This document shows, one piece after another, positions 10,401 to 39,076 of a DNA stretch of 64,000 nucleotides. The notes beneath the pieces were generated by a model that saw only the letters and a program-made list of their open reading frames with translations, made no database searches and was not told the DNA's origin. This stretch comes from Rhina ancylostomus (Eukaryota): the NCBI GenBank assembly GCA_030265395.1, contig JARFYF010000050.1, forward strand, positions 38,344,457 through 38,408,456. The letters are read 5' to 3'. A program made the position numbers and the translations under genes. Every line of letters starts with the position of its first letter. The first letter of the stretch is position 1.

Positions 10401-11312
10401 TTTTGGTGTCAGGTGTTTATACCTCTGTTTTCTGTCCCTGCTTTTCCTTAAGTAGTAGGATCGATCTTGGATTGGTACGTTGCAGTTTGTTGGCAGCATT
10501 CTAGAATCTCATTCACTAGAGACCTGGTGTTCTCCACTACTTCCATTCTACCATGTCTTCCATGAAGACTGATACAATATTTACTTTCTCTGCCATTTCT
10601 TTATTCTCCAGCTCAACTTCTCCTGTACGGGATCCATATTACTCTTTGCTGTCGTTCGGCATATCTATAAAGTGTTTTTCTGAAGAGGTTACCCTTACTT
10701 TCTCGTATCTTGGTCACCCTTCGCTGAGCTTTGAAATTTTCCCATTTAATCTTCTTTTGGCAACCTTTGATCTGATACCATCTCTGACTTGTTAGCCACG
10801 GTTGGACCACTTTCGCTGCTGGGCCTTTGTAAAATATAAATTCTTTAAATGGAGACGCGAGAGACTGCCGATGTTAAAACCAACTGCTGGAGGAACTCAG
10901 CGGGTTGAGCAGCATCTGTAGAGGGAAAGGAATTATCGATGCTTCTAGTTGAAACCCTGCATCAGGGCTGAGTGGAGAGGTGAGGTGACTGGTATAACGA
11001 GGAGGGGCAGCAGCAGCCAGCTGGGAGGAGTGGAGTTGGGAGGCAGAGTTCCTCACTCTAATTTCTTTCAAAGGTCAACTGTAAATGAGCAGGGGCTAAT
11101 ATTTAATGTGGTCTTCCCAACTTGCCCCACATGCTTCCATGATTCGCCTTGTTTCAATTTAAACCCCCACTTCCAATCCACCAAGGGCACCCCTCCCCCA
11201 AACCCCTTAATTTCCAGATTACTATTTTTGTAAATTGTACGGTGCCCGAGACACAAGTGCCCTGGGGATGTTTCACTTCTGGGTCAGGGGTTCAAATTAA
11301 ATTTTATTTCCA

Positions 11313-11540
11313 GTGTGGTAACAGGCCCTTCTGGCCCAGCGAGTCTGCACTGCCCATTTTAAACCCACATTAACCTACCCATGCATCTTTGGAATGTGGG
11401 AGGAAACCGGAGCACCCGGAGGAAACCCATGCAGACGGGGGAGAACGTACAAACTCCTTACAGGCAGCGATGGGAATCAAACCCGGGTCGCTGGTGCTGT
11501 AATAGCATCGCGCGAACCGCTACACTACTGTGCCGCCCAC
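11313..11540 (-). mobile_element. V-SINE (HE1-like tRNA-derived SINE)
   Basis: Reverse strand has a tRNA-like head with A/B boxes (tagtgtagcggt...gggtttgattccc), then the V-domain ggagtttgtacgttctcccc...gggtttcctccgggtgctccggtttcctcccaca. Confidence 0.85.
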
Positions 11541-13019
11541 GGTTCAGATCACGGTATGGCACGGTAGGGATCAGGAGGCTCAGGGGTATCTGGGTGGGAG
11601 AGCAAGGGTAAACCAGGGCTTGGTGAAGGGGATTGAGAACGAGGTTGAATTCAGGTTGAAAAACCCAACGATACNNNNNNNNNNNNNNNNNNNNNNNNNN
11701 NNNNNNNNNNNNNNNNNNNNNNNNNNNNNNNNNNNNNNNNNNNNNNNNNNNNNNNNNNNNNNNNNNNNNNNNNNTGCTCCAAATTCCAGTATCTGACATC
11801 TCTTGTGTCTCCCGAGATCTTAAATAATTACTGAGCAACAAATTCTTCAAAGTTCTGTACTCCAAACAGAAAGGTAGCTGAAGATGCAAGGAAAGCTAAG
11901 ATTTTGGGCATTATACAGTGAGAGCATGGGGTTGTAGGGTGCCGTGAAGTGTTGGCCCCTTAAATAGCAAAGCTTCAGTACAAGCAGCGCAGTAAACCCT
12001 GCTTGCTCTGTGGGTAAATAACAAACATTGCTTTTCAAACCAGTGAAGTTGAAAGTCACATTAGCGATGAATTCTGGGCATTGCACAATTGGTGATATCA
12101 CTTGGGGAAATTTTACTGCAGAAAAATGTATCTAGTCCTTGCATGAATCCCCCCCAGAAAGTCAGGTGTTGAATTTCCGACTAGGCATTAGGGCCTAGAA
12201 ATGGTCGCAATGTTGTTCTCTTCCAGGTTAAGCTCGTTTCCAAGCATCATTACGTTGAGTGAAGGAATTTCTGGGCCAACATTTTTGGTCAATGACTTTC
12301 ATCAGAACTGGGAACTACGAGAGATCAACAGGTTTTAAGAAGTAGAGGAAGGGAGGGAGGGGAAGAAAGAACACAGGGGAAGTCTGCCTTGGGGCAGGTG
12401 ACAGAAGAGGTTCAATACCAAAAGGGGTGACAGTGCAAGGTGAAAGAGGGTGATAGTGGGTACATAAAGAAACAAAAGGTTAGTCTAAAGAAGATAGGCA
12501 CCTAGAAAGGGAATTAGGGGAATGGGGACAGAGTTAGGGACTTGCTGGTTTGGGGGACTGAAGAAGATTGGGCAACAAGGTAAGAGTTGTAAAATGGAGG
12601 GTAGTGCAAGAAATAGGACCTGGGTGAGTTTGTTTGTCTGTGTCCATGTGTCTATGTGTGCTTGGAGTGTGTTTTCGTCCACAGATGTGCAGCAGAGCCT
12701 AGTCTCCAATTATCTTGACCCCTTAGACATTGGACCAAGATCCCACTCTGTCAATACTGTACAGTAGATGTTTTGTAATGGCAACCCCACCTTAAAAGAA
12801 CTCAAAGGCACATCCTCCACTTCTCAGAATTGAAGTGGAAGCAAGTTACTCATGATCCCTAGGGACTGCTTAAGAAGTAAAAGAAATGGAAAAATCAAAT
12901 GAATTATCTGATGTTAGCAAAATAACAAATGTAATGTTGGAAATCTGATATAGAAGAATATTAAATCTGGAAAGCTGTAATTTGCTTTCGTGCACACAGT
13001 TAAGAAATGGTCAGAAAAC

Positions 13020-13680
13020 AGAAAATATTGAAAATATTGAGCGAGTCAGACAGCTTCTGTGGAGGGAGAAACAGAGCTGATGTTTCAGGTCAAGGTCTTT
13101 CATCAGAATCGGGAGAAATTAAAGATAAAGCAAATTTTAAATTGCAGAGAAAGGAAGAAGAGTGAAGAGGGTTTAGAGAAAGGTTTATGATACAGTATAT
13201 ATCAGAAAAATGTAAATGACAAGCAGTAACAGAGCAGGAGAAAAAGGTAGGTGAAAGAATTAGTGAATGACAAAAGGTAGGCTTGAATGTAACACAAGTA
13301 AAACAATGATCTGAAATTACCAGAAAAGAGGAAAAAAAACATTTTAGCAGGAAATGTGACTGGCTGGTTGTCTGAAATTGTTAAATTCGGCGTAGAGTAT
13401 GGCAGGTTGCTACATGCTCAGTCAGAAGATGGTTACTATGCCTTGTGCTTACTTTGGCTTTGTTGGAACAGTGTAGGAGGCCAAAGACAGAAAAGTCAAA
13501 GACAGGATCAGTTGAATATTAAAGTGATGGGAAACTTGACGGTCAAGGTCATGCATGCGGACCAAACAGAAGTGTTCTGCAAAGCGGTGATACAACTGTG
13601 AGCAGCGACTCTTCCAAGTCAAAAGAAGTGCGAGTGATTCTGAATGGATTTCTGAACAGATTTCTGAACAGTCCATAAAC
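13020..13680 (-). mobile_element. Penelope-like element 3' remnant with hammerhead-type repeat
   Basis: The minus ORF contains RFAEH...QVSHHFN (GIY-YIG tail). CTGATGA...GAAAC motif at 13075-13110. Confidence 0.6.
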
Positions 13681-15319
13681 CCTTGACCACCACCTCATTA
13701 TTTCTCTTTTGCATTATTTGTATATTTTTGTAAATTATAGTAATTTTTGTGTCTTACACTGTACTGCTGCCGCAAAACAACAAATTTCACGACATATGTC
13801 AGTGATGATAAACCTGATTCTGATTTCCTGCTTCATCTGAAAGCAGGGTTTGGGTCTTTGGACATTTGAGAAAGATTGAGTGAAAGACCAAGTTTGACAT
13901 CCCCTGCTGTTGCACAGAGAGGTGCCCTAAGAAAGGGAATAAAAACAGGTTAAGTCCAACTTCCTGGGCCAAATGTCTGTCCAGTTACATATGCCACACC
14001 GCACACCCTTTCAGCCTATATAATTCACTTGGTAGCAAATTATCATAATCAATACACTGTGCAGTCATTAGAGAAACACAGTAAAGCAGCAGCTTAAAAT
14101 GCAATAGGCAAAGTTAGAAATCAAGTTCAGGCATCCAAAATGTTAAATAGTCATTCTGCAAGAAATTCTTTGAAGTTCAACACAATTACACAACGAAGTT
14201 TTGATTGGTGACAGAGGGGGTGGACAAGTGCTGCAGGCTATATGTACTAAACATGCAGCTACTTGGAATTACTCTGTTTGGCACACAATATGGAGTACAA
14301 TAGAAAGTAACAGATCAGAAATGATGATAGTTCCTGACATTGCAAACCAATTAAGTTTAGATAAATGAGTCACTCTGACATAAGAGCATTGTAGTTGTTA
14401 AAGAGGGTGAGCAGAAGATCTGGAATTGTATGTGGCTTCAACATGTCTCATTGGCAACTTTCCCCTGCACTGGCACAGCCACATGCAGCTTGAAGCATGT
14501 CAACCAGTGGCATGGAATGGGAGCTAATGAACAAGCTTTTGCCACCCCTGCAACAAAGCAGCTTTAGCAGAGAATTAGAGGTTACAGCAGGGAAGGAGAC
14601 CATCTGGCTTATCTCGCATGAACAAATTCATAACATATACCAGCTCTTTACTTAAATGAGTTATGAGCTTAAATTACTCCATGCTATGAATGTTTTTTTT
14701 ATGTAAAGGGATTTCTCCACATTCTGAGTAACAATTTTTAAAATAACAGCCTCTTCTTACTGATTGCTCAGGAGTGAAAAAATGTCCTCAGTCAGCATTA
14801 TGAAGATGCAATATTGTGGCCATTCTGCAGTATCCAGTCCTTCCCAAATTCTATTCTATTGAATTATCTGATTTAGGATAAATTTCTTATATTATTAATT
14901 GTGGTCAAAACCCTTCATAATTTGTAAAAAGCTCTTTATATTAACTCTCTTTATTGCCTTTTCAGCGCCAGTGAAAATAATCACAATACTTCCTATAAAC
15001 TGTAGTTTCCCAACTTGAAATTATTGTGATAATCTACATTGGTTGCTTTCAAAGAATTTACTGTCTTTTTGATGAAGGGATCTCCCATCTGGGACAACAG
15101 TGCTCTAACTGCAAAATCATTTCAGCCTTGAAACTTCTTGTTCTTGTACTCTACGATGACAGTGATAAAACACAGAACGTTTGCCTTTTTCCCTAACCTG
15201 TCATTATCTCCCTGAAATCTTTGACACAATACTGTGAGATGATTTGAATCATTCAGCCTGCTATTGTGAGGAGTTGAGAAGGCTGTCTACTTGGTATCCC
15301 TGCAAACCACAATATGGAA

Positions 15320-15960
15320 GAGACAATTAACCATATCTGTACAGTAGTGGAATGATAGGAACTTTGCATTGTAATCTGGCAGCACATAATGACTGTAGTA
15401 TCTGCATTTCCCAAGCCCTCATGAATACTTGGACCTCTGCCTTTGAGACCTTTGGTTCAAATGTAGAGTCACCCGTGGTTTCTAGCTTCAGCCAATCAGC
15501 AATCCTGGAATAGGAGGACCTTAAGGTCAAGATTAACAGACTTCACTGTGGCACAGAAAGTCTGCTCAGAGGTGACGGAGTTCCCAGCAGCAGTTGTGTG
15601 CCTGGTTAGGCATGGATGAGGCTATTTTCTCTCAGGCACATAAACCAGCCTTTGCAGACAGTTATACTAACATGCAAGCGGAATGCCTAAATTTGAGCCA
15701 TCCAACTTTCAGCTAGCTGGTACTTTTATTCATTCCCAGACAATTCCCATGTATCTAAAGTTTGCTTTCTTTCTTCTCATTGTCAGCTTTTACTAAGGCA
15801 TCCTTGTGGCTATTTGCTGATGTTACTTTTACTTTGCTTTCCTCCAAGCTAACTTGTAGTCCATGTGTTTAAAGCCTCCTGCAAACATTCTGTTATTTCC
15901 TTCAGCTTTTCAGTAGCTCCAGGTATTAGATCATAGTGCCAGCACACATCTATTCAATGT
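15320..15960 (-). mobile_element. Ancient non-LTR retrotransposon RT remnant (RTE-like)
   Basis: Frameshifted GATEKLKEITECLQEA/HGLQVSLEESKVKV resembles the post-YADD region (YGLxINxxKTKVM), with a downstream AWEMQILQ-like segment. Confidence 0.35.
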
Positions 15961-16689
15961 CAACTGTTCATTAATAATTCCTTTCTAAATGCTCTTTTCC
16001 CTATTGTACCATTTGTAATTGAGCTTGTTAGAGGACTCTTAGTGGTCATGATAATTCACGAGAGAACAGAAAACATTTCCTTCCATGCAATCCCTCAGAA
16101 TCATGAATTTTGTAGGGTTAAGTTTGCAAGGCAAAATTGATTCATTTTTCCTGAGTACTACAGAAAATTTGGCAATGTTGTTCCTTAGAATTGAGTAATA
16201 ATTGTTTCTCACGGGTTTAATTTAAAGCGAAATTTTTTTCATGCCATTAATAAAGGTAAATAAAATCTCCCCAGGCACCTCAAATAACTTCCTGTCTGTC
16301 AAAGTCAGGTGTTCAGCACAGAAAAAAGCTTTGAAAAATACACATCTCAAAGGTGACTAAGAGAACAGGTGTAATCCCATGACCCACCTATGGAATGCTT
16401 GCATGGACGCAGCCCTTAATATTAATCATATGGCTCTGTCGAGGCCTTTTGACTAGAAATGCATTTTATTGTCTGAACTTGCAGTAAATGAGAGTCCAGG
16501 TTTTGAAGGTACCTTTGCTGAAACTGATAGTAGTTCCTCATATAACTAACAGCAACTTGGGCATTTCCAAGGACTTGCTCAGCATTGACCAGGTGGGCTG
16601 AATGGTCTCTTTCTTTGCTGTGACCATTGTATGCCTGGGCTTCTGAGCTCCCTCCATCACTGGAATCCTTGAGGAATTCAGGCGGGAGA

Positions 16690-17352
16690 ATCATAGAGTC
16701 ATACGGTACAGAAACAGATCCTTTGGCCCAAGTGGTCCACGCTAAGATTCCCATCTAAGCTAGTCCCATTTGCCTGCATTTGGCCCATATCCCTCAAAAC
16801 CTCTCCTATCCATGTACCTGTCCACATGTCTCCTGAATGTTGTTAATGTGCCTGCCTCAACACTCCCTCTGGCAGCTCATTCCATGTACCCACCACCCTC
16901 TGCGTGAAGAAGTTGCCCCTCAGGTCCCCTTTAAATCTTTCCCCTCTCATCTTAAACTTATGCCACCTAGTTTTTAGTTCCCTTTCCCTGGGAAAAAGGC
17001 CATGTGTGTTCACCCTATCTATGCCCCTCATGATTATATGCACCTCTATAAGGTCACCCCTCGATCTCCTACGTTGCAAGGAATAAAGACCTACCCTGTC
17101 CAACCTCTCCCTCTCACTCAGGCCCCAAAATCCTGGCCGCAGCCTCATAAATCTTCCCCACACTCTTTCCAGTTTAATAACATCCACAGTGTTAAAACTG
17201 TCCACAGTGCTCCAACTGCAGCCTCACCAACGTCTTGTACAACTGCAACATAACGTCCCAACTCCTGTACTCAGTGCCTTACAGATGAAGGCCGGCGTGC
17301 CGAAGGCCTTCTTCACCACCCTGTCTACCTGTGACGCCACATTCAGCGAACT
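16690..17352 (-). mobile_element. CR1 LINE 3' end
   Basis: ERVWGRFMRL...ERLDRVGLYSLQRRRSRGDLIEVHIIMRG...FFTQRVVGTWNELP, followed by the CR1 3'UTR tail. Confidence 0.9.
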
Positions 17353-17836
17353 GTCCTGCTGGGGAAGGAGATCTGTCAGCTTTCCCTGCCTGAACTGTGG
17401 CTGACTCCAGACTACATCCATGTCATTTCATAGTCCATCTTGGGGTTGACAGCAGGACATTCAGTGGTGTGAACTGTGGAACTAGGTACCTTCACCACTC
17501 AGACTGCAGTGGATCCAGAGGTCAATTCACCAGCACTTTCCCAAGGACAGTAGGAATGGGGAATAAATGGACCCTTCACATCACCAGTAGGAATAAAAAA
17601 TAACAGCGATATTAATTTACCCCAGTAAAACAGCAGATGGTGTAAATCTGAAATAAAAACAGAAATTGCTGCAAACTCTCGGCAGGTCAGGCAGCGTCTG
17701 TGGAGAGAGAAACAGAGTTGATGTTTCAGGCCAGAGGTCCTTTGTCAGATTGCTTGCTCTAATGAAGGATCTTTGACCTTGGTTCTCTCTCCACAGATGC
17801 TGGTGGACCTGCCAAGTGTTTTGAGAATTTTCTTTT

Positions 17837-18130
17837 ATATTATTAATTTACCCACGAGTTATCCACAACAATTAACTTCATTATTAATTAATCCCTAATA
17901 TTAAATAATTTGTTATTAACAGTCATCTCTCATTTTATAACTTGCTATTAAATAATCCTAATATTAACATCCATTGATCTTAATATTAATAATCCCAAAA
18001 TTGAATATTAATACAGAATAACTACAATATTAGCAGGCACTCTGTATACACTACCCACAAAAGACATTGCTGACACTACCATAGATATTCATTGAGGCCA
18101 ATATTCAATATTATTAATTAATTCTGACAT
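17837..18130. repeat. AT-rich low-complexity (attaat)n-like tract
   Basis: Repeated tattaat/ttaata words. Confidence 0.6.
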
Positions 18131-18289
18131 CAGATGGCCCCAGATTGAAATAACCCATTCTGAAATCCTGCAGGAGTATTCCATTCATAATTGTACATTT
18201 AGTTAACACCTGTTGCCTCCCCTATCACTTCCCCCTCCCCCTATTAATTCTCGTACAACTTTAAAGACCCTTGCAATCAGTACGTGGGG

Positions 18290-18548
18290 TAACAACGCAC
18301 GCAGATGGCCACACCCTGAGTGCACTAGTACGATAAGATGGACTCTTGACCTCACAATCCACCTCATTGTGGCCTTGCACCTTATTGTCTGTCTGCACTG
18401 CTCTTCCTCTGTAACTGTAACACTTTATTCTGCACTCTGTTATTGTTTTCCCCTTGTACTACCTCGATCCACTGAGGTAATAAATTGATCTGTATGGATG
18501 GCATGCAAAACAATGTACCTTGATACATGTGACAATAATAAACCAATT
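18290..18548 (+). mobile_element. Rex1/Babar LINE 3' tail
   Basis: Close match to 43190-43390 (gatggactcttgacctcacaatc...gcaccttattgtc), ending gtgacaataataaacc. Confidence 0.7.
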
Positions 18549-18689
18549 CACATTTTACACTTATCACTGAGTCTGCAATTCACCAAATCCTTGTACTATT
18601 GTCCCCTAGAGATAATCTGATTTCCCAGACGTAGCAGTGTGCTGAAATCACAAAGTGTTGCCACCATCCTGTGCAGCAACCCACAGAGA

Positions 18690-19520
18690 CCTAGAAATAC
18701 CCCTCCCTGTCCCCAGCTACTTGCCCCTGCAACCATAGGTGGTGTAACTCCTGTCCCTTCACCTCCTCCCTCACCACCACCCAGGGACCTAAACAGCCCT
18801 TCCGGGAGAGGCAGAGATTCCCATGCACCTCCTCCATCCTGGTCTGCTGCTCTCGGTGCTCCTGATGTGGTCTCCGCTGCCTCGGTGAGACCCAGTGTAG
18901 ACTAGGTGACTGTTTTTAAGAGTACCTGCACTCTGTTTGCAGTGGCCATCCCGAGCTTCTGGGTGCGTGTCACCTCACCTCCCCTCCCCACTCCCACACC
19001 ACCGGTGTGCCCTTGGCCTTCACCACTGCCACAGTGAGGCCAAACACAAACTAGAGGAACAACACCTCATATTCCAACCCAATGGTGTGAGCATTGAATT
19101 TATCAGTTTCAGGTAACCCGTGCCCTCTGTGTCCTTTCTCACTCCCACCGATCCACCCGGAGACTCTCTCCATTTGTCCACCTCTTCCCCTAGCCTCCCG
19201 TTACCCAGATTCACTACTGCCCCCACCTGTTCCATCTGCCCATCTCCCACTCACCTGCTACTTCTTGGCCTACCCTTCCTATCCCCTCCCCCACCTGGTT
19301 CCATCTGTCCATAATCCCTCTCTTGTCTGTTTCTGCCTATCAGCTACCAGCCCCCCGTCTCACCCCTCCATATACTTTCTGCCTTCCCCTCTACACTCTC
19401 AGTCCTGACGTCGGGTCTCGACCTGAAACGTCGACCGTCCCGACTGTCCCACAGGTGCTGCCTGGCCCACTGAGGAAGTTTGGTCTTTGCTCCTGATTCC
19501 AGTATCTGCAGTCTCATGTG
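18690..19520 (+). mobile_element. Penelope-like element 3' remnant
   Basis: GIY-YIG tail (SEAKHKLEEQHLIF), a pyrimidine-rich tail and a terminal hammerhead-type repeat at 19401-19436. Confidence 0.7.
19401..19436 (+). ncRNA. Minimal type I hammerhead ribozyme-like motif (Penelope terminal repeat)
   Basis: agtc-CTGACGT-c-gggtc(tc)gacct-GAAA-c-GTC-gacc: a CUGANGA-like box with one mismatch, a stem II hairpin, the GAAA box, a GUC cleavage triplet and a short stem I. Confidence 0.55.
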
Positions 19521-21179
19521 TCTCCTTCCATTGTCCTTGGTGAAGTGCCTGGGGCTGTTCACTCTTCGCTGAGGGGGAAATGAATCCTTCTCACACTAGA
19601 CCTCCATCCCACCACCTCCTCGTTCTTGCTCTCATACCCTTCCACGTACCGCACTTCATCCTGCAGAGGCTGCCGGCAGACTGTGAAATACTCCAATCAC
19701 CTCCCTCAACTCCCCACCAACAAACCTCCATGTGATTGGAAATCCCTTTAAATGGAGATGTTCTTACTGCAGTTAAATGCTGCATTCCCAATGCAAGCCA
19801 TTTGTTGCAATTTGGCAGCATTGGCATCAAATCGTGGGGCACTGACAGTGCGATCTGCCTACTCTGCAGCTTCAGGCACTGCCTTCCCGCTAGGCAGGTG
19901 GCACAGACCACTCCCCATCGTACATCACAAACCCGCATTCAAACTATACCAAAGCTTTGTGGCCATGGAGTGCAGCATGCAGATTTTCTCCTGGTACCCT
20001 GGGAAGACTACACTTGCCTCAGAGTACATTCACATTGACAACGTGGGTTTCACCGGGTGCTCCAGTTTCCTCCCGTATCCTGTGGTGGGTTAACTTACTC
20101 CGGGTGTAGCTGGGTAGTCATAGAATGGGCATGTGAGGGAGTGGATTACCGGGAAATAAAATGGGGCTATGGGACTGATGGGAATGCTGAGCTGGCATGG
20201 ACTTGATGGGCTGAATAGCCTCCTGTGTTACGAGAAGTGTGAAATAAATCTGAAATGTGGAGAAGTTTCGTCGTTGAAAAGGTTCGTGAACATTGGAGTT
20301 CTGTACCCAGGAGAGCTGTGGATTGCAGTCAAATCTGACAAAAAAGGGATTGAGTAATAATTTATGTGGAAGATCCCCCATGATCTTTGGAACAGGCTGA
20401 GGGGCAGAATGGCCTACTGCTGCTCCTCACACTGACCATGGCTCGTAACCTGGTCCATGGGGCACGCACACACCAGTCCTGGGTAATTCACGCCGGCCAC
20501 ACACACACTGCCCATCGATCCCTGCACCATTGTTCTCAAATTCACAGATCTAAGCAGAATCATCCGCTCACTAATGTACTGACCCACGGCACACTGGACG
20601 TGTACTTGGGAATAAAATTGGAACCCAATCTAATGCCCCACCTACAGTTGGATGCCGTCAGGTGACGGGGCTTTACTGTACAGTCTGTCTGTACCCCTCA
20701 GCCCCCTTTGTATTACTCTCTTTCTTTCTTCCTGTCTCCCTGGTTTGATTATTCTCTCCCCCTTCCATCCTCTCTCTGCCTCTGTGTCCTCTTTCTCAGG
20801 GTCTTTAACTCTCTTTTCAGTGTGATTCACTCGATATCGGTCTCCGTGTGTGTGTTTCCCTGACTCCATCTCCATTATTTGTGACCTCCGTCTTTATAAC
20901 TCTGAACCTTCCAGGTCCTTTCACTGCTCTGTATTTCCATTACCCCCTTTACTGTCTCCTATACCACACATGTGCTTTCTGCCTGCCTTTCCCTCTCTCT
21001 CTCTGCCTCTCTCTGATCGTCCCAGTAATATGTTAAAAGAAACATCCTGTATTGAATATTTCCAAGCGAATGAATGCTTTAAAACAAGACACATGGGAGA
21101 ACTTGCTGAGTGTGGTGACTGTGGTCTCATGGGGAAGATTAGTGGTCAGACTTCAAAGAGTGTCTTTTCTTGCCATCAG

Positions 21180-21300
21180 GCTCCATTACGTCCTGGGTCG
21201 GTCAGCGTCTCATCCTGGAGGACGGGCACCAGATTCTGAAGACCATGTGGCTGTTGAGATCTCCAGTTGCCAGCCTACAAGACGACTGGAAGTCGACAAG
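21180..21300 (+). CDS. Avidin-family biotin-binding protein, penultimate exon
   Basis: Strong acceptor (tcttttcttgccatcag) and donor (AG|GTGAGC); 121 nt. Encodes (G)SITSWVGQRLILEDGHQILKTMWLLRSPVASLQDDWKST(R), matching the avidin signature GQ..G...LKTMWLLRS.....DDWK.TR. Confidence 0.9.
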
Positions 21301-21489
21301 GTGAGCCTTCACATTGAGCTGTCCAACCCTGGGATCCCTGTAGCGAGCACTGATGGGATCCCATACTGACGTGTGAGCACTGATTCAATTTTCAAAGATT
21401 TGGGAGGAAAGAAATTGTTATGGTGAAGTGAAGTTTTGCCCTGTGGGGAACACAAGGAAACCGTTGATTCCAGTGCTCAGTACTTAACA

Positions 21490-21770
21490 TGGATTTAAAA
21501 TAATGGGTGGGAAGTTCAGGGGAGATGTCAAAGGGAGGATTTTTAACCCAGAGAGTGGTTGGTGCATGAAATGCGCTGCCTGGGGTGGTGGTGGAGGCAG
21601 ATACGTTGGTCAAGTTCAAGAGATTACTAGATAAGAAAATGGAGGAATTTAAAATAGAGCGATACGTGGGAGGAAGGGGTTAGATAGTCTTAGGTGTGCT
21701 TTGCAGGTCAGCGCAACATGGTGGGCTGAAGGGCCTGCATTGTGCTGTATTGTTCTATGGTTCTATGGAA
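21490..21770 (+). mobile_element. CR1 LINE 3' end, in the avidin last intron
   Basis: ttttaacccagagagtggttggtgcatgaaatgcgctgcc...gggctgaagggcctg...ttctatggttctatg tail. Confidence 0.8.
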
Positions 21771-22197
21771 ACAAAGACACAAACTTAAAATCAGAACCAA
21801 AATACTGCAGGTGCTGGAATTTTGAAATAAAACAGAAATACTTGGGAGGTCAGGCAGTATCTGTGAAGAAATAGGGTAAATATTTCGAGTTGATGATCTT
21901 TCGTTAGAATCTGGTAAAATCAAAGGCTGATCGTTGAAGATACTTCCCTCCTGCAAAAGCTGAAACAAATGTGGAGTTCCCGCCCAGAAAAATCATTGTG
22001 TGTTGCTCAATCAACAACCTCAAACCTGGAACTGGTTGGTAAATTTTTGCTCCGTTACAATGTGAAGGGAGCCTGAGCCGCAGTACAGATCAGTCATGGT
22101 CTCATGGGTGGTAGAACAGGCTGGAGGGTTTGAACGGTCTCCTTGTGCTGTGTGATATTGAAATAACCTACTCACTTTTACTTCTTGCTTTTCCAAG

Positions 22198-22258
22198 AAT
22201 TGGACAAGACACTTTTCTCCAAACCACAAGGGATGTCCTGTCAAAGAATCAACATTAA
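22198..22258 (+). CDS. Avidin-family protein, terminal exon
   Basis: Pyrimidine tract and ttccaag acceptor, phase 2 consistent. Encodes (R)IGQDTFLQTTRDVLSKNQH-stop, matching the final avidin strand (VG.N.F / MGEDIF). Confidence 0.85.
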
Positions 22259-22313
22259 TCTCTCAAACCTTAGCACGGACCCATCAAACTCCTGACCTGC
22301 AGATGTGATTTTC

Positions 22314-22319
22314 AATAAA
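22314..22319 (+). terminator. Polyadenylation signal of the avidin-like gene
   Basis: AATAAA 55 nt after the TAA stop. Confidence 0.7.
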
Positions 22320-22607: not shown

Positions 22608-22765
22608 GGGGTACGATGTAGTGCAGGAACACGGGGGTAATGGGGTGGGGTACGATGTAGTGCAGGAACCCGGGGGTATTGGGGTGGGGTACGATGGAGT
22701 TCCAGAACACAGGGGTATTGGGGTGGGGTACGATGGAGTGCAGGAACACGGGGGTAATGGGTTGG
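22608..22765 (+). repeat. 39-bp G-rich minisatellite (at least 4 copies, abutting a gap)
   Basis: Unit ggggtacgatgtagtgcaggaacacgggggtaatggggt; tacgat recurs at 22612, 22651, 22690 and 22729. Confidence 0.9.
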
Positions 22766-24119
22766 CAGAGGAATTGGTGTGGGTGGGTGGTGGTGAATTA
22801 GCCAGAAGTTTGTACTATCAGAGTGGGTGGGGTTACGTGCTGGAGAAACGTGATAATGAAGCGGGCAGTGATGTGGTGATGGGGGTTCGTCGTACTGATC
22901 TGTAGGGTGATGGAGTTCAGGAAGATGAGGTTCATGGTTGGAGGATATGAACAAAGATAATAGAATGTTTGCAGTCCCTCAGACCCTCCAGTACCTTCCA
23001 TCGTTGTGTTCGCCTTGTCAACATTCATGCAGTGCAAGAAAAGTGTATGAATTCAAGAGCGGCATGCAGGAAGACAGTCATTGCACAGCCCCCTGTATCC
23101 ATGCTGACTAAGTACCTGTTAAAGTCGACCCATGCTCTGTAATAAACCAGAGAACAGCATCAATTGATTAATAATGTGGCCAAAAACAATGAGAATGACC
23201 CCGGGGACCCACTGTCAGGCATGGTGACCCTATTCTTGTGGAAGATGAGGGTGAGGAATTGGAAGATTCCCTGTGGGATAGACTCCCCCCGTGTGCCCCC
23301 CCCAGGGATTCCAGGCTTTCCCACCGTGGGGACTTGTACCTGCACCTCGTGGTGCAGAGTAATTAACCCAGCCTCCCGTCAGAGACGAGCAAGGAGCAGG
23401 ACCCCCGAGCAAAGAGGGAGAGAAACCTCTTTTCTCCCCAGATGGAAACAAAGATCCAGTTGGACAGGGCAAAACCCCGAGATCTCTTTCCCCTCTGTTG
23501 TGCTGTATTGAATCCTGAAGAGAACATTAAGTGGAAGGCAGCAATGCTGCTTCCTGCATGAGGGGGACATCCTATTGATACTTCTGAAGATTTAAATCAG
23601 CAAAATGATAATCCGAATCAACAAGTTAATATCATGTTGACAGCTCTCTCAGAGAGTTTGAAAAGACCAATCGACATGAGTAAGTTGTGGCATGTAAACC
23701 TACTTTTACAGAGGACTTTTGGGAATGCTTTACTACAGCACATCAGACATATGCTGGGGATTGGGCTTACAAAAGGGTCGCTCGAATATTTTTAATGAAC
23801 TGCCACCACTGCGCAGGGATACCTTCTTTAATTGTGGGCGAGAAGGACACTGGCGACGGGACTGTCCCATTAGTTACCAGGAGAATATGGACGACAGGCA
23901 CAAGAGAAGGAAGGCACCCTTCACCACTAACAACCCCTACAGACAGTGACTTAGGTCGCAAGAAAGGCCCACACGTTACCTTTCATCATCACATCAAATC
24001 TGGGTTGTAATTTGGCTGGGACTTGCTCAGATGACTTGAATTGGAAATACTGTGCACCGATAGGGGGGTCTATGTGAGTTCGCCCTCTGTGCAGCCACAA
24101 GCCATAGTGGCAGTCAGCC

Positions 24120-24500
24120 CTCCCCAGTGGTGGTCAGTAGATCTTCCTCCAGCACTGCGCTCTTCTGACCTGCCGAACCCTCATGTCATCCTGTGCTATG
24201 ATCCCACTGGTCACGACTGGGAGAAAGAGCACTTCTATCAGCTGTATGAAGGACACACGGTTAATGTACGCTTGACCGGGAAAGTTGAGGGATGGCAGGG
24301 AACAACCCTGATGGCAGAAGTGCCAGAGATGATGTGGAAGCAAATGGGATTAATCCATCCACATGTTACACTCACTGTTAATAAGGGACATATGGCTAAG
24401 GAGCTTGGTGTCTTGACCCAATGTTTGGTGAATCTTGCTGATCCTAATTTGACCACTAAGCAGGAGTTCCCTCAAGGTGCGTTGACCTACTGGACGACCA
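24120..24500 (+). pseudogene. 2H-phosphoesterase (CNPase-like) domain within the ERV pol
   Basis: Two H-x-T-type motifs 60 aa apart: PHVIL (His at 24182; ATC is one transition from ACC/Thr) and HPHVTLTV...AKELG (His at 24362). Located between protease and RT. Confidence 0.7.
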
Positions 24501-24799
24501 ATCAAGAAGTTTTTGGCATATTGAAACATCACCGGTCACAGGACAGGATGGAAGTTCCGATGAGGTCTGGTCTGCATGTCCGACGAGGTAGGAAAACCCA
24601 TCTGTGCGCTGGTACGCACGTCAGTAAAACTCAACGTCCAGCAACCGTCTATACCACAGGACCCTTTGAAGCCTAAAGTACATGAAGGCAACTTACAACT
24701 GTTAACCCAGCTTCTTTTCCGACACAGCCAGCCCCTGAGATTTCAGAGCCTGATCATGACTGTCTGCAGAGAAATCATTTCCTAATTTTGGCTCCTGAG

Positions 24800-25165
24800 G
24801 ATTTAAAGGACTGTCCAATTAATGGAGCCACAACCTGGTTAGCGGATGGCCAAAGCCAGCGATGATCTGGTTATTCTATCGCACAGGGTACTGATACAGT
24901 GATAGAGGCTGCAGCCTTCCATAGTTCTCTCTCTGCACAACAAGCTGAACTCTTTGCTCTAACATATGCCTGCATTACAGGAAAGAATATTTCCCTTAAC
25001 ATTTACACAGACTCGCGATATGCGTTTGGTGTGTTGCGGCAGCATCGTGAATTTCTGACCTCCTCAGGTGCCCCTATTAAAAAGGCCATGTTTGTGTCTA
25101 ACTTGCTAGCGTCTCTGTCCCAACCGGCAATAGTTAAGTGTGATGCACACACTGGGAAATGCCTA
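24800..25165 (+). pseudogene. ERV RNase H remnant
   Basis: WLADG...SAQQAELFAL...NIYTDSRYAFG...LTSSGAPIK...IVKCDAH, the catalytic motifs of gamma/epsilon-type RNase H. Confidence 0.9.
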
Positions 25166-25588
25166 GGCTCTTCTGGGTCCTGTCACTCTAACAGGACCCA
25201 GAAGAGCACCGGGACAGAGGCATGTCAGCCTACAGCACACATAGTTACTAAGTGGTATAAGCCCAAATATAATCAGTCCAGAGAGCCCCCTCATTTTACA
25301 CTGACCCAGTTTACCAAGGGAGGAACATGTGCAGAATATCACCCACTGAGCAAACCACATCAAGGAACGGATAACCGAGGTACAGGAAATTGGAGACCAG
25401 TTTCACAATTACAATTCCCTGAGACCATCTTGGTAGCCTTTTAAGGGATAGTTGACAACATTTATCCAGGGTATATGCGTCATCACTGTTATTCTGTTGA
25501 TAATATTGCTTTTACACAGAGTATGCTACACTCCTGTCTTAAGTTAAATTTGCTCTAAGTGGTTATCATGGAATGATAAAGGAGGGAA

Positions 25589-26050: not shown

Positions 26051-27099
26051 TCACAAGGATACCTGGACACCTCCGGACTGAGTAAGTGACAGACTGCGTT
26101 CAGAAGGTCAACGGGAGAGATAAGGTGCCTTCGGACCCCTTGTGCCTGACTCCTATATTGACCTCCGGGAACACTGTGGTCCCTCATCCGAGGTCGATCT
26201 GGATCCCTGCCGAAATCCCAAAGAACCAGCAGAAGGCAAGGAGATTCACAGGTTATTTTTAAGACAGTCGTATAGTATATAAAAAGTCATTTAGTTTGAT
26301 ATAAAGAACAGAAAATATTTTGAGTTTGCTTGGTATAAGTAAGGTCATATGGAATAAATTCACTTGGTAAAAATAAGTACTTAAAGTTCGTGAGGTATAA
26401 GTTCATTTGGTATTAGAGTTCGTATGGAATAAATAAGTTCGTTTGGAAAAATAAAGAAATTCTACAGAGTTTGTTTGGGAAACAGACTTTGTTTGGAGAT
26501 AGTGTTCATTTGGAAACATAGTCTGGGATAAATTGTAATTTGATCTGAGGCAGTGAGGCCAGGATAAATTCTGATCTGGACATCAGATGTAAATCAGAAA
26601 TCAGAATGGGACAGACTTTGGGGGGGGGTGGGGGCACCCCCGTGCAACAGATGTGTTACCTGCACCCAGAACATCAAAAACAGTATCGACAATTGTTAAC
26701 TGAAGAGTGGCTGATTGGTGGCACAAGGTACACATTAAATCATCTGTTTAAAAGACATCAAGGGAGATATTTAATCTAATTTCTTTTTGAAGGCTCTAAT
26801 TTCCATCTTATTTCACGTTATCTTATAATTTAATGTTCAGTCTGCTGCTCTTTAATTTCAAGAGTGCTTTTCAGTTTGTGGTAGAAATTTATGTTTTGAA
26901 ATTGATACTTTAATGTATAAGTGTTGTTTTTGTCTTTCATATTATTAAGATTTTTTGAGAATTGAGTTCTAATAAGTTAGGTTTTAAATAGTTAATGAGC
27001 AACATTATGTACTAAAGAGAGGAAAGGAATTAGGAAAAAAGTGGAAAAGAATGAGGGAGAGGGAGACCCAGAGCTCCCTTCCCATTGTCATCTACATAC

Positions 27100-27860
27100 C
27101 TGTCTACATTAATCCTGTTAACTCCCTTGCTGATTCAAGTGCTGGTCCACATTCCTCTTAAATGTTGCAAACATCTCCACTTCCACCACATGGCAGTCTG
27201 TTCCAGACTGCAACCACCCTCTGGGTGTAAAGATACTTCCTCAGATCCCCCTAAACTTCCTACCCCTCACCTTAACCCTATTCTTTCTGGTCTCAGATAC
27301 TGCAGCCAAGGAGAAAACTTTCTTCCCTAACTATGCCTTTCATAATTTTGTATACCTCTATTGGGTCCTCACCCTTGAAACCCTGGTGTTCCCTGCTGCG
27401 TTCTTTTGCCTTCGTCTGTGAAGGAANNNNNNNNNNNNNNNNNNNNNNNNNNNNNNNNNNNNNNNNNNNNNNNNNNNNNNNNNNNNNNNNNNNNNNNNNN
27501 NNNNNNNNNNNNNNNNNNNNNNNNNNTCCAGCATCTGACATCCTTTGTTCCTCTAAATTCTCTAGTTCTGTCTGTAAATGGCTTATATTTGCTCTTGCTA
27601 GTCTTTTCCTTTTTACATACCTATAAAAGCTTCTATTGTCCCACTTTTCATATTCTACCTTGTCTAACTTTATCAATTTCCTGGCTTTTCTTTGCAAAGT
27701 TCTAAGCCAGAGGTGACTCAGCCACCTCTGCTCCAAGGAAAACAAACCCAGCCTATCCAGTCCCTCCTCATTACTGAAACACTCTATCCCAGGCAACATC
27801 CCAGTAAATCTTCTCTGCAGCCTCTCAAGTACAATCACAACCTTGCCATAGTGTGGCAAG
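27100..27860 (-). mobile_element. CR1 LINE 3' fragment, interrupted by an inverted duplication
   Basis: LERLQRRFTGMLPG...LDRLGLFSLEQR, then resumes DPIEVYKIMKG after an inserted segment. Confidence 0.75.
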
Positions 27861-29239
27861 GATAATGGAGGAAGGGGTGGAAGTTGGAGTAGAGGAAATA
27901 AGAGGTGTGTGCAATAGGAGAAATACGGTAGTCACAGGGGAATATATAAAGACTGGACAATTACCATCACTGTGATGAAGGACACATTTATGGAATGATG
28001 GTTTTCTGGATTGTAGGTTCAGGAATCAATAGGGGAAGAGGATATTTTGGGTCTCATTTTGCATAATGAGAAAGCGTTTGTTGGCAATCTTGCTGTAAAG
28101 GGGTCTTTGGGAAAGAGTGACCGTAACAGGATGGAACTTTGCAATGAGTGTGAAAGCGATTCAGTTCAATTTGAAAACTGGGTCTTACATCTAAACATTT
28201 AAAATTATAAAGGTGTGAGGTGAGATTTGGCCCTGGTTGATTGGGACAGAATATCAAAAAGTATGGTGGTAACAGATCATGGCTAGCATTTAAATCAAGC
28301 ACAGAATATATGACAGTAAACTCAACAGAAAATGTGTTCTAATATGGCTGAAATGAGAAATTTAAGATAGTCTGAATTCAAAGAAGGGATTTACAAAATT
28401 ATTGAAAATAACAATTGGCCTGTGAGGATTGGAAGCATTTTAGAACTTTGCAAAGAAGAGCCAGGAAATTGATAAAGTTAGACAAGGTAGAATATGAAAA
28501 GTGGGACAATAGAAGCTTCTATAGGTATGTAAAAAGGAAAAGACTAGCAAGAGCAAATATAAGCCATTTACAGATAGAACTGGAGAATTTTCTTCTATTT
28601 AGAGTTCTTCTATTTCTTTAGAAATGAGTTTAGAATTTAGAGTTCTTCTATTTCTATAGAAATTGTTCTTCTATTTAGAGAAACGAAGGTTGTCAGATGC
28701 TGGAATCTAGATGAAAAAAAAACAAGATTCAGGAGGAACTCAGCAAGTCATGAAGTATCCATGGTGTCACAATGTTGATCCGGAGCAAACTCACAGAGAA
28801 CCCAAATGTGGCACACTGATACAAGACTGGAGTCAGGATANNNNNNNNNNNNNNNNNNNNNNNNNNNNNNNNNNNNNNNNNNNNNNNNNNNNNNNNNNNN
28901 NNNNNNNNNNNNNNNNNNNNNNNNNNNNNNNNNNNNNNNNGCATGGAATCCATGTGCTGGACAACAAGGCATTAATGGAGCCAAATGAGGGCCAGAACTC
29001 AGAACCATGACACATGGAGAAAAATGGTCAACATTTCAGGAGAATTTATCTTGGGAAATAAGGAATTATGTTATATCTGCCTTCACCGACGAAGGCAAAA
29101 GAACCCAGCGGGAAACACCAGAGATTCAAGGGTGTGGCAGGACCGAGGGACTGAAGAAATGTGAAACAGTGCCAGAGAAGTTGGCGACACTAAACGCTGA
29201 TAAATCCCAAGGACTGACAGGAGGGGAGATGATCTTAAG

Positions 29240-29470: not shown

Positions 29471-29569
29471 ATGGAGAGTTTGGAAAAGGCACTTTAGAGA
29501 CGGTGAGGGTTCTGGTTACCATCGTCTACACCCCTGGAATTGGCTGTCGGATATGGTAAACCCTTCAAC

Positions 29570-29808
29570 AGTTCGGAGGCGGGGTACTGACAGGAGCGGC
29601 GGGCGGCCGGCGGCCGGCGGGCGGGATCCCCTCCGCGCTCTGCCCACAATGCAAGCGGACGAGGGTTGTCAATCAAACCCCATGACGCCCGGCCTGGCCT
29701 GCTGGCCCCACCCACTATTTCCCGGCCGCGCTCTCTGATTGGCGCTGGTTTTGCCGCAGTCAGGCGCAGCAGGGCAGCTTCACTTGGGGTCCTGTCGTTT
29801 CGGACAAG
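29570..29808 (+). promoter_or_regulatory. MRPS7 CpG-island promoter
   Basis: CpG-dense, TATA-less. GC box ggaggcgggg near 29575; ZNF143/Staf-like TGCCCACAATGCA at 29641-29653; inverted CCAAT (ATTGG) at 29738; YY1-type CAAGATGGCGGC overlapping the ATG. Confidence 0.8.
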
Positions 29809-29870
29809 ATGGCGGCGACTTGCGGCTGGCGGTCGGCGGGTTGTCTGAGCGGGAAAGTCCGGCTGTCGTG
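29809..29870 (+). CDS. MRPS7: MRPS7 exon 1 (mitochondrial targeting peptide)
   Basis: aagATGG Kozak context; MAATCGWRSAGCLSGKVRLS(W) is basic with no acidic residues; phase-2 GTGGGT donor fits exon 2. Confidence 0.8.
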
Positions 29871-30981
29871 GTGGGTGGGGTGTAGGGAGCGGTAGTGGGG
29901 TAGGTGNNNNNNNNNNNNNNNNNNNNNNNNNNNNNNNNNNNNNNNNNNNNNNNNNNNNNNNNNNNNNNNNNNNNNNNNNNNNNNNNNNNNNNNNNNNNNN
30001 NNNNNNNNNNNNNNNNNNNNNNNNNNNNNNNNNNNNNNNNNNNNNNNNNNNNNNNNNNNNNNNNNNNNNNNNNNNNNNNNNNNNNNNNNNNNNNNNNNNN
30101 NNNNNNNNNNNNNNNNNNNNNNNNNNNNNNNNNNNNNNNNNNNNNNNNNNNNNNNNNNNNNNNNNNNNNNNNNNNNNNNNNNNNNNNNNNNNNNNNNNNN
30201 NNNNNNNNNNNNNNNNNNNNNNNNNNNNNNNNNNNNNNNNNNNNNNNNNNNNNNNNNNNNNNNNNNNNNNNNNNNNNNNNNNNNNNNNNNNNNNNNNNNN
30301 NNNNNNNNNNNNNNNNNNNNNNNNNNNNNNNNNNNNNNNNNNNNNNNNNNNNNNNNNNNNNNNNNNNNNNNNNNNNNNNNNNNNNNNNNNNNNNNNNNNN
30401 NNNNNNNNNNNNNNNNNNNNNNNNNNNNNNNNNNNNNNNNNNNNNNNNNNNNNNNNNNNNNNNNNNNNNNNNNNNNNNNNNNNNNNNNNNNNNNNNNNNN
30501 NNNNNNNNNNNNNNNNNNNNNNNNNNNNNNNNNNNNNNNNNNNNNNNNNNNNNNNNNNNNNNNNNNNNNNNNNNNNNNNNNNNNNNNNNNNNNNNNNNNN
30601 NNNNNNNNNNNNNNNNNNNNNNNNNNNNNNNNNNNNNNNNNNNNNNNNNNNNNNNNNNNNNNNNNNNNNNNNNNNNNNNNNNNNNNNNNNNNNNNNNNNN
30701 NNGAGGGGTGGGAGTATGTGTGAGAGGGTGGGAAGATGTGGGCAGATGGTTGGGCTGCACAGCTCTGAGGAAGGGTGGGGGGCTGTGAGGGTAAATGTCT
30801 CAGGGTGTGGGTTGAGGGGGTGGGGGAAGTACCACATTGAAGTGTGTTAACAATGTGTTTATTGTGGAGGGATCAGTGTGTCCCGGGACATGTTGAGTGG
30901 GCAGAGTGCTGATGGGGGAAGGTGGGGTTTTGGGGTTTATCTGAAGTCCTGTCCTGTTCTCATTTACCTCGGTGTCCTCAG

Positions 30982-31173
30982 GGTGACACCAGTGCGGTGG
31001 TCACGGTACAATCGCTATTACCTGGAGCCTGTGATCAGCAAGGAACAGCAGCGGACTCCAGCCACTGAGCTCAGCGCAGAGGAGAGGGCAGCCCTGGAGC
31101 AAAAGGCAGCTCAACCAATAAAGGCTGCCCCGAATGACATAACCAGCAGCGTCTTCAGTGACCCAATGATCAA
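30982..31173 (+). CDS. MRPS7: MRPS7 exon 2
   Basis: VTPVRWSRYNRYYLEP...PIKAAPNDITSSVFSDPMI; AG/GT boundaries, 192 nt. Confidence 0.95.
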
Positions 31174-31969
31174 GTCAGTGTCTTGAACTGCAGCAAAAAT
31201 GCATTCCTGTAAAATGTAAAAACACAACAGGAAAAGTGGTTTACAAGAGAAAATAATAGTTTTAAAAGTATGAAGTGGCTTGTATAGTTGCCAGAAAAAG
31301 CAGTAAGTTGAAGGATTGGAAGGTTGTAGAATTCCGCAAAGGGTGTTGAAGAAATTTGAGGGAAAGGAAAATGAAGTGTGAGAGTGAATCAGTGAAAGAC
31401 ACAAACACAGACTGTGAGAGCTTACATAGAGATGTAAAAAGCAAATGTGGGTCCCTTACAAACAAAGATGGGAGAATTTATGATGGGGAATAAGGAAATA
31501 GTAGAATTAAATTTAAAAAAAAACACAAACATCTCAAGTACTGGAGAAACAAAGGTCCAATACAAACGAGGATGTGGAACAAAGTTAATGAGCATGAAAA
31601 ATGACAAGTGCTGAAGACGTGATGATCTCGATCCCAGGGTTTCTGTTTATCATCTTTGAAAATTCTATAGATTCCAGAATGGACGGTGCAATTTGGAGAG
31701 TAGCAAATGTGAGACCAATATTCAAGAAAGGAGGGAGCAAGAAATTGGGGAACTATTGACCTGTTAGTCTTGGGTAGCAATGAACCATTTCTGCCAGTTT
31801 GCAAGGTGCAGGAGCCTTGCTCCACACAATCCTGATGGCTATTGCTCAGTCTGTCTTTGCACAGTGTCTTCCTATGGGCAGTGGGGGGCTATCTGACTTG
31901 CACTTTGGTGTTTATTGGGTTTTTCAAACATAAAGATGAAATAAAAAAAACAATGAGTTGCTGTTTATC

Positions 31970-32835
31970 ATCTATATCAATGATTTGGATGAGAATATAC
32001 AAGGCATGGTTAGCAAGTTTGCAGATGACGATAGGTGGTGGTGTTGACAGGTGATTTTCAGGATTTACAGAGGGATCTTGATCAGTAGGGTAAGTGGGTC
32101 TAGGAATGACAAATGGAGTTTAATTCATATAAATGTGAGTTGTTGCATTTTGGGAAGACAAAGTAGGGTAGGACTTTCACAGTTAATGGTAGGGCCCCAG
32201 GGAGTGTTGTAGAACAGAGGGACCTTGGAGTACATGGTTCTCTGAAAGTGGCCTCGCAGGTAGCCAGGGTGGTGAAGGTGGCTTTTGGCCCGCTGGCCTT
32301 CATCAGTCAGGGCATCGAGTATAGAAGGTTATGTTGCGGACACTGGTGAGGCCACATTTGAAATATTGTGTTTGGTTTTGGTCACCCTGCTGTGGGAAAG
32401 AGTGCAGGGAAAATTTATGAGGATCTTGCTGGGACTTGAGGGACTGAGTTATGGAGAGAGGTTGAGTAGGTTGGGACTTTTCTCATTGGAGCATTGGAGA
32501 ATGAGGGTTGATCTTATAGAGGTGTATAAAATCATGACGGGGTTAGGGTGAATGCGCACAGTGGTTTTCTCAGGGTTGGGGAATCAAGAACTAGAGGGTA
32601 TAGATCTAAGGTGAGAGGGGAGAGATTTAACAGGAACCTGAGGGGCAACTTCTTCACCCAGAGAGTGGTCAGTATATGGAACGAGCTGCCAGAGGCAGGT
32701 ACATTAACATTTAAAAGGTACTTGGACAGGTACGTGGATGGGAAAGATTTAGAGGGATATGGGACTGGTTTAGATGGGAATGTTGATTGGCATGAACCAG
32801 TTGGGCCTAAGGGCCTGTTTCTGTGCTGTGAGACT
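31970..32835 (+). mobile_element. CR1 LINE ORF2 3' part (MRPS7 intron 2)
   Basis: SKFADD-like segment, LSYGERLSRLGLFSLE..DLIEVYKIM and FFTQRVVSIWNELP; ends just before the exon 3 acceptor. Confidence 0.9.
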
Positions 32836-32865
32836 ATAACTATATCCGTTTTATTTGTTTTTCAG

Positions 32866-32929
32866 CAAATTCATCAACATGATGATGAAGGGAGGTCAGA
32901 AATTGCTGTCCAGGTCAATCATGAACAAG
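32866..32929 (+). CDS. MRPS7: MRPS7 exon 3
   Basis: ttttcag acceptor, GTAACA donor. Encodes KFINMMMKGGQKLLSRSIMNK, the uS7 motif; not in the ORF-track frame. Confidence 0.95.
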
Positions 32930-32989
32930 GTAACAGTTGATTGTACCCTGTATTTCTGCAACACCACCCCTCACACCCTGCCACACCCA

Positions 32990-33730
32990 AAGATAGGCAA
33001 TTAAATTGTGAAGAAAGATAACGAGGTTACAAAGGGATGTGGGTGGCTTAAGTGATAAAGCAAAATCTAGTAAATGGATTTTCATATGAAAATGTGAAAT
33101 TGTTCATTTTTGCAGGAACAATAAAAAAAGAAGCATATCTAAATGGTGAGAGATTGCAGGGCTCAGAGATGCAAAGGGTCTGAGTGACCTGGCATTGTCA
33201 TTTATTGGTAGGGGAATTGAATACTAAAGCAGGGAGATCATGTCTCAGTTAGAGTGGGCACTGGTGAGACCTGAAGTACCATGTGCAGAATTGATCTTGA
33301 AGATGTAAATATATTGAAAGCTGTTCAGAGAATGTTTACAAGACTGATGCCTGGAATAGGCAGGTTATCTTAGTAGCCAAGGTTGGACAGGCTAGGCTTG
33401 TGTCCTCTAGAATTTAGAATAGAGATGTGACTTGATTAAAACATGTAAAATGCTGTATATGAAGAGGATGTTTCCTCTTTTGAGCAAATCTATAACTGAG
33501 GATCCCTTTGTATTTGGAAAAGGCCGTGTTCATTTAAGATACACAAGGCAATTTTTTTCTCAGAGGGTTATGAGTCTTTGGAACTTTCCCTTGGAAAGCA
33601 GTGGAAGTGAAGTCCTTGAATATTTTTAAGGTAGAAGTAGATTGTTCTTGATAACTGGAGGGGAAAGGTTACTTGGGTAATGGTTGGGCAGGGCTGAGGG
33701 GGCCAGATGGCCTATTCCTGCCCCTAATGT
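32990..33730 (+). mobile_element. Older CR1 LINE 3' part (MRPS7 intron 3)
   Basis: Degenerate QRMFTRLMPG, LDRLGL and FFSQRVMSLWN motifs. Confidence 0.7.
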
Positions 33731-34707: not shown

Positions 34708-34875
34708 ACCTTTGAATTGATAAAACGGAAGCAGATTGAAAGCTACCACAAGGCCCCTGAGTCTGCAAAGGATGTCATTGAATGTAACCCATACAAGATC
34801 TTCCACCAAGCTCTGGAGAATTGTCAGCCTGTCCTAGGGTTAACCAGTGTACAGCGAGGTGGCAAGTCTTACCAG
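34708..34875 (+). CDS. MRPS7: MRPS7 exon 4
   Basis: TFELIKRKQIESYHKA...IECNPYKIFHQALENCQPVLGLTSVQRGGKSYQ; tag/GTATG boundaries. Confidence 0.96.
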
Positions 34876-39030: not shown

Positions 39031-39076
39031 CTTCCCAGTTCGTTAATGGATTTTATTCCCTGAATTCCTGTTGCAG

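Follow-up and report, generated by a model that had tools for sequence, protein, structure and literature searches.

The 64-kb window analysed here, a stretch of draft assembly with 14 gaps, contains exons 3 and 4 of an avidin gene, the 3' half of the clade 1 avidin of a sawfish relative. With a probability of roughly 0.52, we hold that the gene is whole in the animal and that its exons 1 and 2 likely reside in an assembly gap upstream of exon 3. This value, like the weights behind the wording used for the three other readings, is a judgement and was not computed. Judged by sequence, exons 3 and 4 are by descent the orthologue of the clade 1 avidin of sharks and rays. They are a real, unannotated gene fragment, but one from a known, catalogued gene. 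As assembled, with Arg at position 83 (chicken numbering), the sequence is not that of a typical working member of the clade.

The locus and the structure of the gene

LLGL2, avidin exons 3 and 4 and MRPS7 are all encoded on the + strand (Table 1). The earlier note had situated the avidin exons between LLGL2 and MRPS7, and sequence matches confirm both neighbours; the LLGL2 exon that was tested matches LLGL2 chains with an E value of 6.6e-39, better than it matches LLGL1. Two exons had also been described as splicing in phase, with canonical splice sites and an AATAAA signal, and all of these elements are seen. The spliced exons give 59 open codons in phase. The first Gly of the spliced peptide, as quoted in that note, is a presumed residue, one base of which would come from the missing exon 2. 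Exon 3 spans approximately chicken positions 74-114, corresponding to strands 6 and 7, and exon 4 matches Pristis at 84% in tblastn and scores 35.8 bits with its profile.

The stop codon was considered as a possible lesion and rejected, since the avidins of Pristis, Mobula and several sharks stop at the same position. The short C-terminus of the ray studied here, Pristis and Mobula probably arose from an earlier stop. Directly behind the stop, four codons (22259-22273, + strand) still encode the residues with which the skate avidin ends.

Table 1. Positions of the avidin exons, the neighbouring genes and the upstream assembly gap within the window
Feature	Position	Strand	Remarks
LLGL2, last exons	793-6534	+	Exon 793-1057 tested; likely AATAAA at 6529
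Assembly gap, 100 N	11675-11774		Only gap from the LLGL2 end to exon 3
Avidin exon 3	21180-21300	+	121 nt; pyrimidine tract and AG before, GT at 21301
Arg codon CGT replacing Cys83	21206-21208	+	Codon read from the assembly
Avidin intron 3	21301-22197	+	897 nt; GT-AG; phase 2
Avidin exon 4, coding part	22198-22258	+	AG before; strand 8 and tail; stop codon TAA at 22256-22258
Avidin 3' untranslated region	22259-22319	+	AATAAA at 22314-22319, then a GU-rich stretch
MRPS7, five exons	29809-39298	+	ATG at 29809; 30982-31173; 32866-32929; 34708-34875; 39077-39298

Between LLGL2 and exon 3, no other protein-coding gene was recognized (none of 164 frames of at least 45 amino acids has a Pfam match; short exons could escape). 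An AT-rich stretch at 12000-16400 matches hardly anything in the rest of the window and nothing in Pfam; it could be intron 2, intergenic DNA or a piece of an unrecognized transcript. On the other side, avidin is closely followed by a gap, whose right edge carries a 39-nt tandem repeat (22608-22765, 4.1 copies). Some 0.8 kb past the avidin poly(A) signal, with a gap in between, begins a decayed remnant resembling an LTR retroelement or endogenous retrovirus (23100-25500, + strand). It consists of separate short frames broken by stops, among which a zinc knuckle (PF00098, E 7.9e-07, in 23698-23946) and an RNase H domain (PF00075, E 1.9e-08, in 24866-25441) are recognized. Farther on, inverted near-identical duplicates are found at 27555-27705 and 28440-28590 (151 nt, 97%) and at 27367-27424 and 29080-29137 (58 nt, 88%). 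Their position beside two 100-N gaps suggests a local mis-assembly between avidin and MRPS7.

A CpG island (29500-29906; GC 0.66, CpG observed/expected 0.87) covers MRPS7 exon 1 and ends in a 796-N gap, and the donor of this exon is ambiguous. In intron 4 of MRPS7 (37228-38423, - strand), frames resemble by eye a broken LINE reverse transcriptase, with no Pfam match at E 0.001. In the 24 kb behind MRPS7 (39300-64000), no protein-coding gene was recognized, although short exons could escape. One of the 142 frames of at least 56 amino acids in this region has a Pfam match, to ALKBH8_N (42645-42842), which we take to be LINE-derived.

Avidin identity and nearest relatives

A search against the Pfam Avidin family (PF01382) had been proposed as the check on family membership. 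Exon 3 alone scores 39.8 bits, above the cut-off of 24, with an E value of 6.7e-10 over profile positions 71-109 of 116, and it matches 29 avidin-family sequences in the PDB. Both results bear out the assignment of the fragment to the C-terminal half of the avidin barrel, and the equivalents of Trp97 and Trp110 are kept as described. All eight candidates returned with exon 3 are annotated shark or ray avidins, the top one being that of Pristis pectinata (98% identical). Of 122 relatives retrieved with a profile, 120 were listed, including 17 full-length cartilaginous-fish proteins from 15 species of shark, ray and chimaera. The residue counts given below refer to 116 named proteins among the matches listed (four unnamed rows were dropped), with one isoform that lacks exon 3 left uncounted.

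Over exons 3 and 4, 54 of 59 residues are identical to Pristis (45 of 47 in the barrel core), and for MRPS7 this is 200 of 213. The animal would hence be a ray close to the sawfishes, though a different species from P. pectinata. The nearest rows by tree path are Pristis, Narcine, Mobula and Hypanus, in a tree of 21 rows that holds no clade 2 rows and leaves the forks open. A catalogue of 130 fish avidins, 18 of them from Chondrichthyes, distinguishes two clades and has the Pristis protein as a clade 1 entry (PMC13425791, Table S2). The avidin is therefore not uncharacterised, a possibility that had been raised: orthologues are annotated in 15 cartilaginous-fish species and catalogued in that table. 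A proposed closeness to zebavidin holds insofar as zebavidin is the best single-domain match in the PDB, but marginally (37.9 versus 36.2 bits), and the true nearest relatives are the ray avidins.

Avidin and MRPS7 are located on contigs of equal size in all three rays that returned both, namely Pristis (44,725,268), Hypanus (65,566,259) and Narcine (375,657,673). This makes it likely that the locus with MRPS7 is the ancestral place of the gene, in the sense of a shared chromosome only and not of adjacency.

Constraint on the fragment and the biotin pocket

No stop, frameshift or loss of a splice site was found in exons 3 and 4. Relative to Pristis, 2 of the 47 core residues of avidin have changed, and 13 of the 213 residues of MRPS7. 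This ratio is like that in other ray pairs (6, 5 and 11 of 47 for avidin versus 27, 33 and 35 of 213 for MRPS7), without excess. Furthermore, among the matches listed, all 17 full-length clade 1 proteins, from 15 species and with live-bearers included, are intact. A link between the state of avidin and live-bearing was rejected, since those relatives, whose live-bearing mode we assume, keep the gene.

The seven pocket residues of strands 6-8 (Ser75, Thr77, Trp79, Trp97, Leu99, Trp110 and Asp118) all equal those of the orthologues. The remaining ones, Asn12, Leu14, Ser16, Tyr33, Thr35, Val37 and Trp70, are coded, together with the signal peptide, by the missing exons and are present in the Pristis orthologue. 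The earlier note had singled out Asp118, where chicken avidin has Asn. However, among the matches listed, Asp is found here in 17 of 17 orthologues, and the 98 other named relatives have 53 Asn, 12 Asp, 1 Glu and 32 gaps. In 167 domains (the best 150 of 601 family representatives), there are 83 Asp, 43 Asn, 6 other residues and 35 gaps. Zebavidin has Asp117 at this position, a swap that its authors call common (PMC3811995), and the matching Asp of bradavidin forms the same hydrogen bond with biotin (PMC5398887). We accordingly discarded the idea that Asp118 signals altered affinity, Asp being the commonest residue at this position in the family. The suggestion of an altered affinity as such found no support, every pocket residue in the fragment being that of the orthologues.

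The Cys-to-Arg change at position 83

The replacement of the GQC cysteine by Arg (CGT), regarded as unusual from the outset, is confirmed in the assembly. Among the matches listed, this position is Cys in all 115 named relatives, 17 orthologues and 98 others. The window consequently lacks the Cys pair for the Cys4-Cys83 disulfide. In the wider family, position 83 was read in the 150 of 167 domains in which Gly81 is aligned (best 150 of 601 representatives): 118 have Cys, 19 Tyr, 3 each Ile, Leu and Phe, 1 each Met, Ala and His, and 1 a gap, with no Arg or Lys. The residues other than Cys in this sample are almost all hydrophobic or aromatic. In the curated table of PMC13425791, the string GQR occurs once, elsewhere than at position 83.

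In a leave-one-out comparison across 16 cartilaginous-fish sequences, no private change other than Arg83 is radical and falls in a column that is invariant throughout the family. Nor do the 17 orthologues among the matches listed have the other core change, Leu at 121. MRPS7 in the same window breaks none of its 31 invariant columns, and therefore base errors are not common here. Still, CGT and the Cys codon TGT differ in a single base, which makes a base-call error or a rare allele possible. Side chains alternate along the strand, and with residues 77 and 79 lining the pocket, that of residue 83 would project inwards at the closed end of the barrel; Arg would be harder to place there than Tyr.

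By analogy with other avidins, the Cys4-Cys83 bridge is dispensable in principle. Engineered chicken avidin without the two cysteines is said to still bind biotin and to melt a few degrees lower. In chicken avidin, Cys83 is bonded to Cys4 (PMC3029397). Seven of the 18 chondrichthyan rows of PMC13425791, all of clade 2, have Tyr, Phe or Met at 83, and loss of the disulfide is noted there; streptavidin C1 has Tyr (PMC7924230). A literature search for a Cys83 mutant of avidin returned nothing relevant.

The missing 5' half

Nowhere in the assembled part of the window are exons 1 and 2 or the sequence upstream of them present, a point missing from the earlier note. Tblastn with eight orthologues against the whole window matched only exons 3 and 4. 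A profile HMM of exon 2 reached at best 4.2 bits, versus 141-146 bits for a true exon 2, and the profiles of exons 3 and 4 scored 97.6 and 35.8 bits. Over 6540-21179, tblastn of 18 N-terminal and exon 2 pieces (from 18 relatives, including the stretches by which the Pristis, Mobula and Hypanus models extend upstream) gave scores like those of a reversed-sequence control. Frameshift-tolerant DNA profiles of exon 1, exon 2 and the thirds of exon 2 also remained at control level, with exon 3 (130 bits) and exon 4 (28 bits) as positive controls. A recurring weak match at 19739-19861 was dismissed as chance (at best 23.1 bits versus 21.6 in the control, 3.5 bits with the HMM, and no ray query best there), as was another at 26067-26156 (- strand). 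As none of these searches found a remnant of exons 1 and 2, at the protein or at the DNA level, the missing part is one clean block.

As a rule, 100 N in an assembly stand for a gap whose size is unknown, and the one in question sits 9,405 nt upstream of exon 3. Its left flank has 6 CpG in 150 nt versus a mean of 1.8, a count that among left gap flanks is second only to that of the gap behind MRPS7 exon 1. Exons 1 and 2 of ray avidins are probably GC-rich, because they contain many Gly, Ala, Arg and Pro codons (a fraction of 0.31-0.46 versus 0.15-0.21 in exons 3 and 4). We infer that this gap holds exons 1 and 2. In zebrafish avidin, intron 2 is also the long one, with 2105 bp versus 87 and 96 bp (PMC3811995). 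Three of the 11 clade 1 rows in the table of PMC13425791 have aberrant N-termini, all still with exon 2, which would indicate that the 5' end of avidin is often badly recovered.

With the exons in the gap, intron 2 would exceed 9.4 kb, whereas the longest of the measured MRPS7 introns has 4.2 kb, less than half of that. AATAAA occurs between gap and exon 3 12 times on the + strand versus 4 on the - strand, and in the LLGL2 and MRPS7 introns 9 versus 15 times (Fisher p 0.027); this strand test was picked after looking, and several of the sites look repeat-derived.

Weighing the explanations

A whole gene is supported by an unsized gap in the right place, its CpG-rich flank, intact exons 3 and 4 and a rate of change without excess. 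Against it speak Arg83, the private Leu121, the length of intron 2 and the + strand excess of AATAAA. Almost as probable is that the avidin has been inactivated recently: promoter and exons 1 and 2 would have been deleted or silenced, the Cys83-to-Arg change would be the first visible lesion, and no functional product would be made. With exons 1 and 2 gone there would be no barrel, since half a barrel could not fold or bind biotin. It is in favour of this that two independent oddities meet at one gene, the absent 5' half and a core change, one of only two, that hits a Cys kept in 115 of 115 relatives among the matches listed, and that neither core change is found in any of the 17 orthologues listed. 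The AATAAA excess upstream of exon 3 and an implied intron 2 of more than twice the longest measured MRPS7 intron point the same way. Moreover, loss may be cheap, zebrafish avidin knockouts being without visible phenotype, and rays and sharks possess a second avidin clade (PMC13425791). All this has to be set against exons that carry no stop, frameshift or broken splice site and evolve no faster than MRPS7 would lead one to expect, against the 17 intact full-length clade 1 proteins from 15 species among the matches listed, and against the unsized gap in which the missing exons could be. On this reading, avidin would be dying in one ray lineage, its 5' half deleted and its disulfide Cys turned into Arg, while the other sharks and rays examined keep the gene intact.

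Of the two options offered by the earlier note, an altered avidin or a decaying copy, the second consequently stays live, and the first is poorly supported. A working variant that gave up the Cys4-Cys83 bridge under selection, with a change in stability or affinity, is improbable. The Arg codon is present in the assembly, and disulfide-free avidins exist naturally in the second fish clade and among streptavidins (PMC13425791, PMC7924230). These proteins, however, have Tyr, Phe, Met, Ile or Leu at 83 and never Arg or Lys, both in the best 150 of 601 representatives and in the table of PMC13425791. Furthermore, the pocket and interface residues of the fragment match the orthologues, Asp118 is normal, and the partner Cys4 lies in the missing part, where it cannot be seen. 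It is most improbable that exons 3 and 4 are a stray partial duplicate with a working gene elsewhere in the genome. Such a duplicate would account for the presence of the 3' half only, in a draft assembly with local duplications near gaps, but not for the equal-sized contigs of avidin and MRPS7 in three of three rays, nor for the single clade 1 gene per species in the catalogue of PMC13425791.

If the gene is whole, as we prefer, its product would be a secreted protein with a signal peptide encoded in exon 1, as in the orthologues. By family analogy, it would adopt the eight-stranded avidin barrel and probably form a tetramer like zebavidin, in which Trp110 would close the pocket of the neighbouring subunit. 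Biotin binding is predicted from the likeness to zebavidin, and the biotin may be held or stored in eggs, gonads or mucosa as in the family. Expression of zebavidin is concentrated in gonads and gills, and its affinity for biotin is about 3e-9 M (PMC13425791). With a whole gene, Arg83 would reflect an error in the base call or a rare allele; alternatively, it would be a tolerated change, one that abolishes the Cys4-Cys83 bridge and would lower stability while leaving the pocket untouched. The literature consulted for the family comparison yielded no measurement on any shark or ray avidin, and literature searches brought up nothing relevant on the loss of avidin genes, on avidin in connection with LLGL2 or MRPS7, or on avidin in the reproductive tissues of elasmobranchs.

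Implications and comparison with known avidins

Asp118 is normal; Arg83 and the missing 5' half are best interpreted jointly, as a matter of assembly or of early decay. A whole gene would add one more species to a known list, and it flags an assembly gap and a residue to be checked again. A recent loss would be a small evolutionary data point, and being lineage-specific it would help to test whether avidin is dispensable. Zebrafish knockouts have no phenotype (PMC13425791). A dying gene would be a natural knockout for the role of avidin in cartilaginous fish and for the question of whether the clade 2 paralogue covers for it. A folded, biotin-binding avidin with Arg83 would be a minor curiosity for avidin engineering, because no such charged residue is found at 83 in the best 150 of 601 family representatives.

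Among known systems, the closest is the avidin-like protein of Pristis pectinata (XP_051889253.1, listed as P. pectinata_1 in clade 1). It has the same stop position and the same pocket residues, including Trp79 and Asp118. It differs in having exons 1 and 2 and Cys83, whereas the window has Arg83, Leu121 and no assembled exons 1 and 2. Among single-domain PDB entries, zebavidin of Danio rerio (PDB 4BJ8) matches exon 3 best (E 6.6e-09), and both have Trp at 79 and Asp at 118. It is encoded by a four-exon gene with an exon 3 of 120 bp (PMC3811995) versus 121 here; exons 3 and 4 of the ray fit this layout, and exons 1 and 2 are not seen in the window. Zebavidin keeps the disulfide and is a characterised protein of nanomolar affinity (PMC13425791). 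Chicken avidin (P02701 family) shares Ser75, Thr77, Trp97, Leu99, Trp110 and the arrangement of strands 6-8. It has Phe79, Asn118 and Cys83 where the ray has Trp, Asp and Arg, of which the swaps at 79 and 118 are common (PMC3811995). Clade 2 fish avidins, such as C. carcharias 2A and P. pectinata_2, also do without Cys83, but with Tyr, Phe or Met in its place (PMC13425791). They differ throughout exon 3, and by identity the fragment plainly appears to belong to clade 1, a comparison made from the published table, the alignments and tree holding no clade 2 rows.
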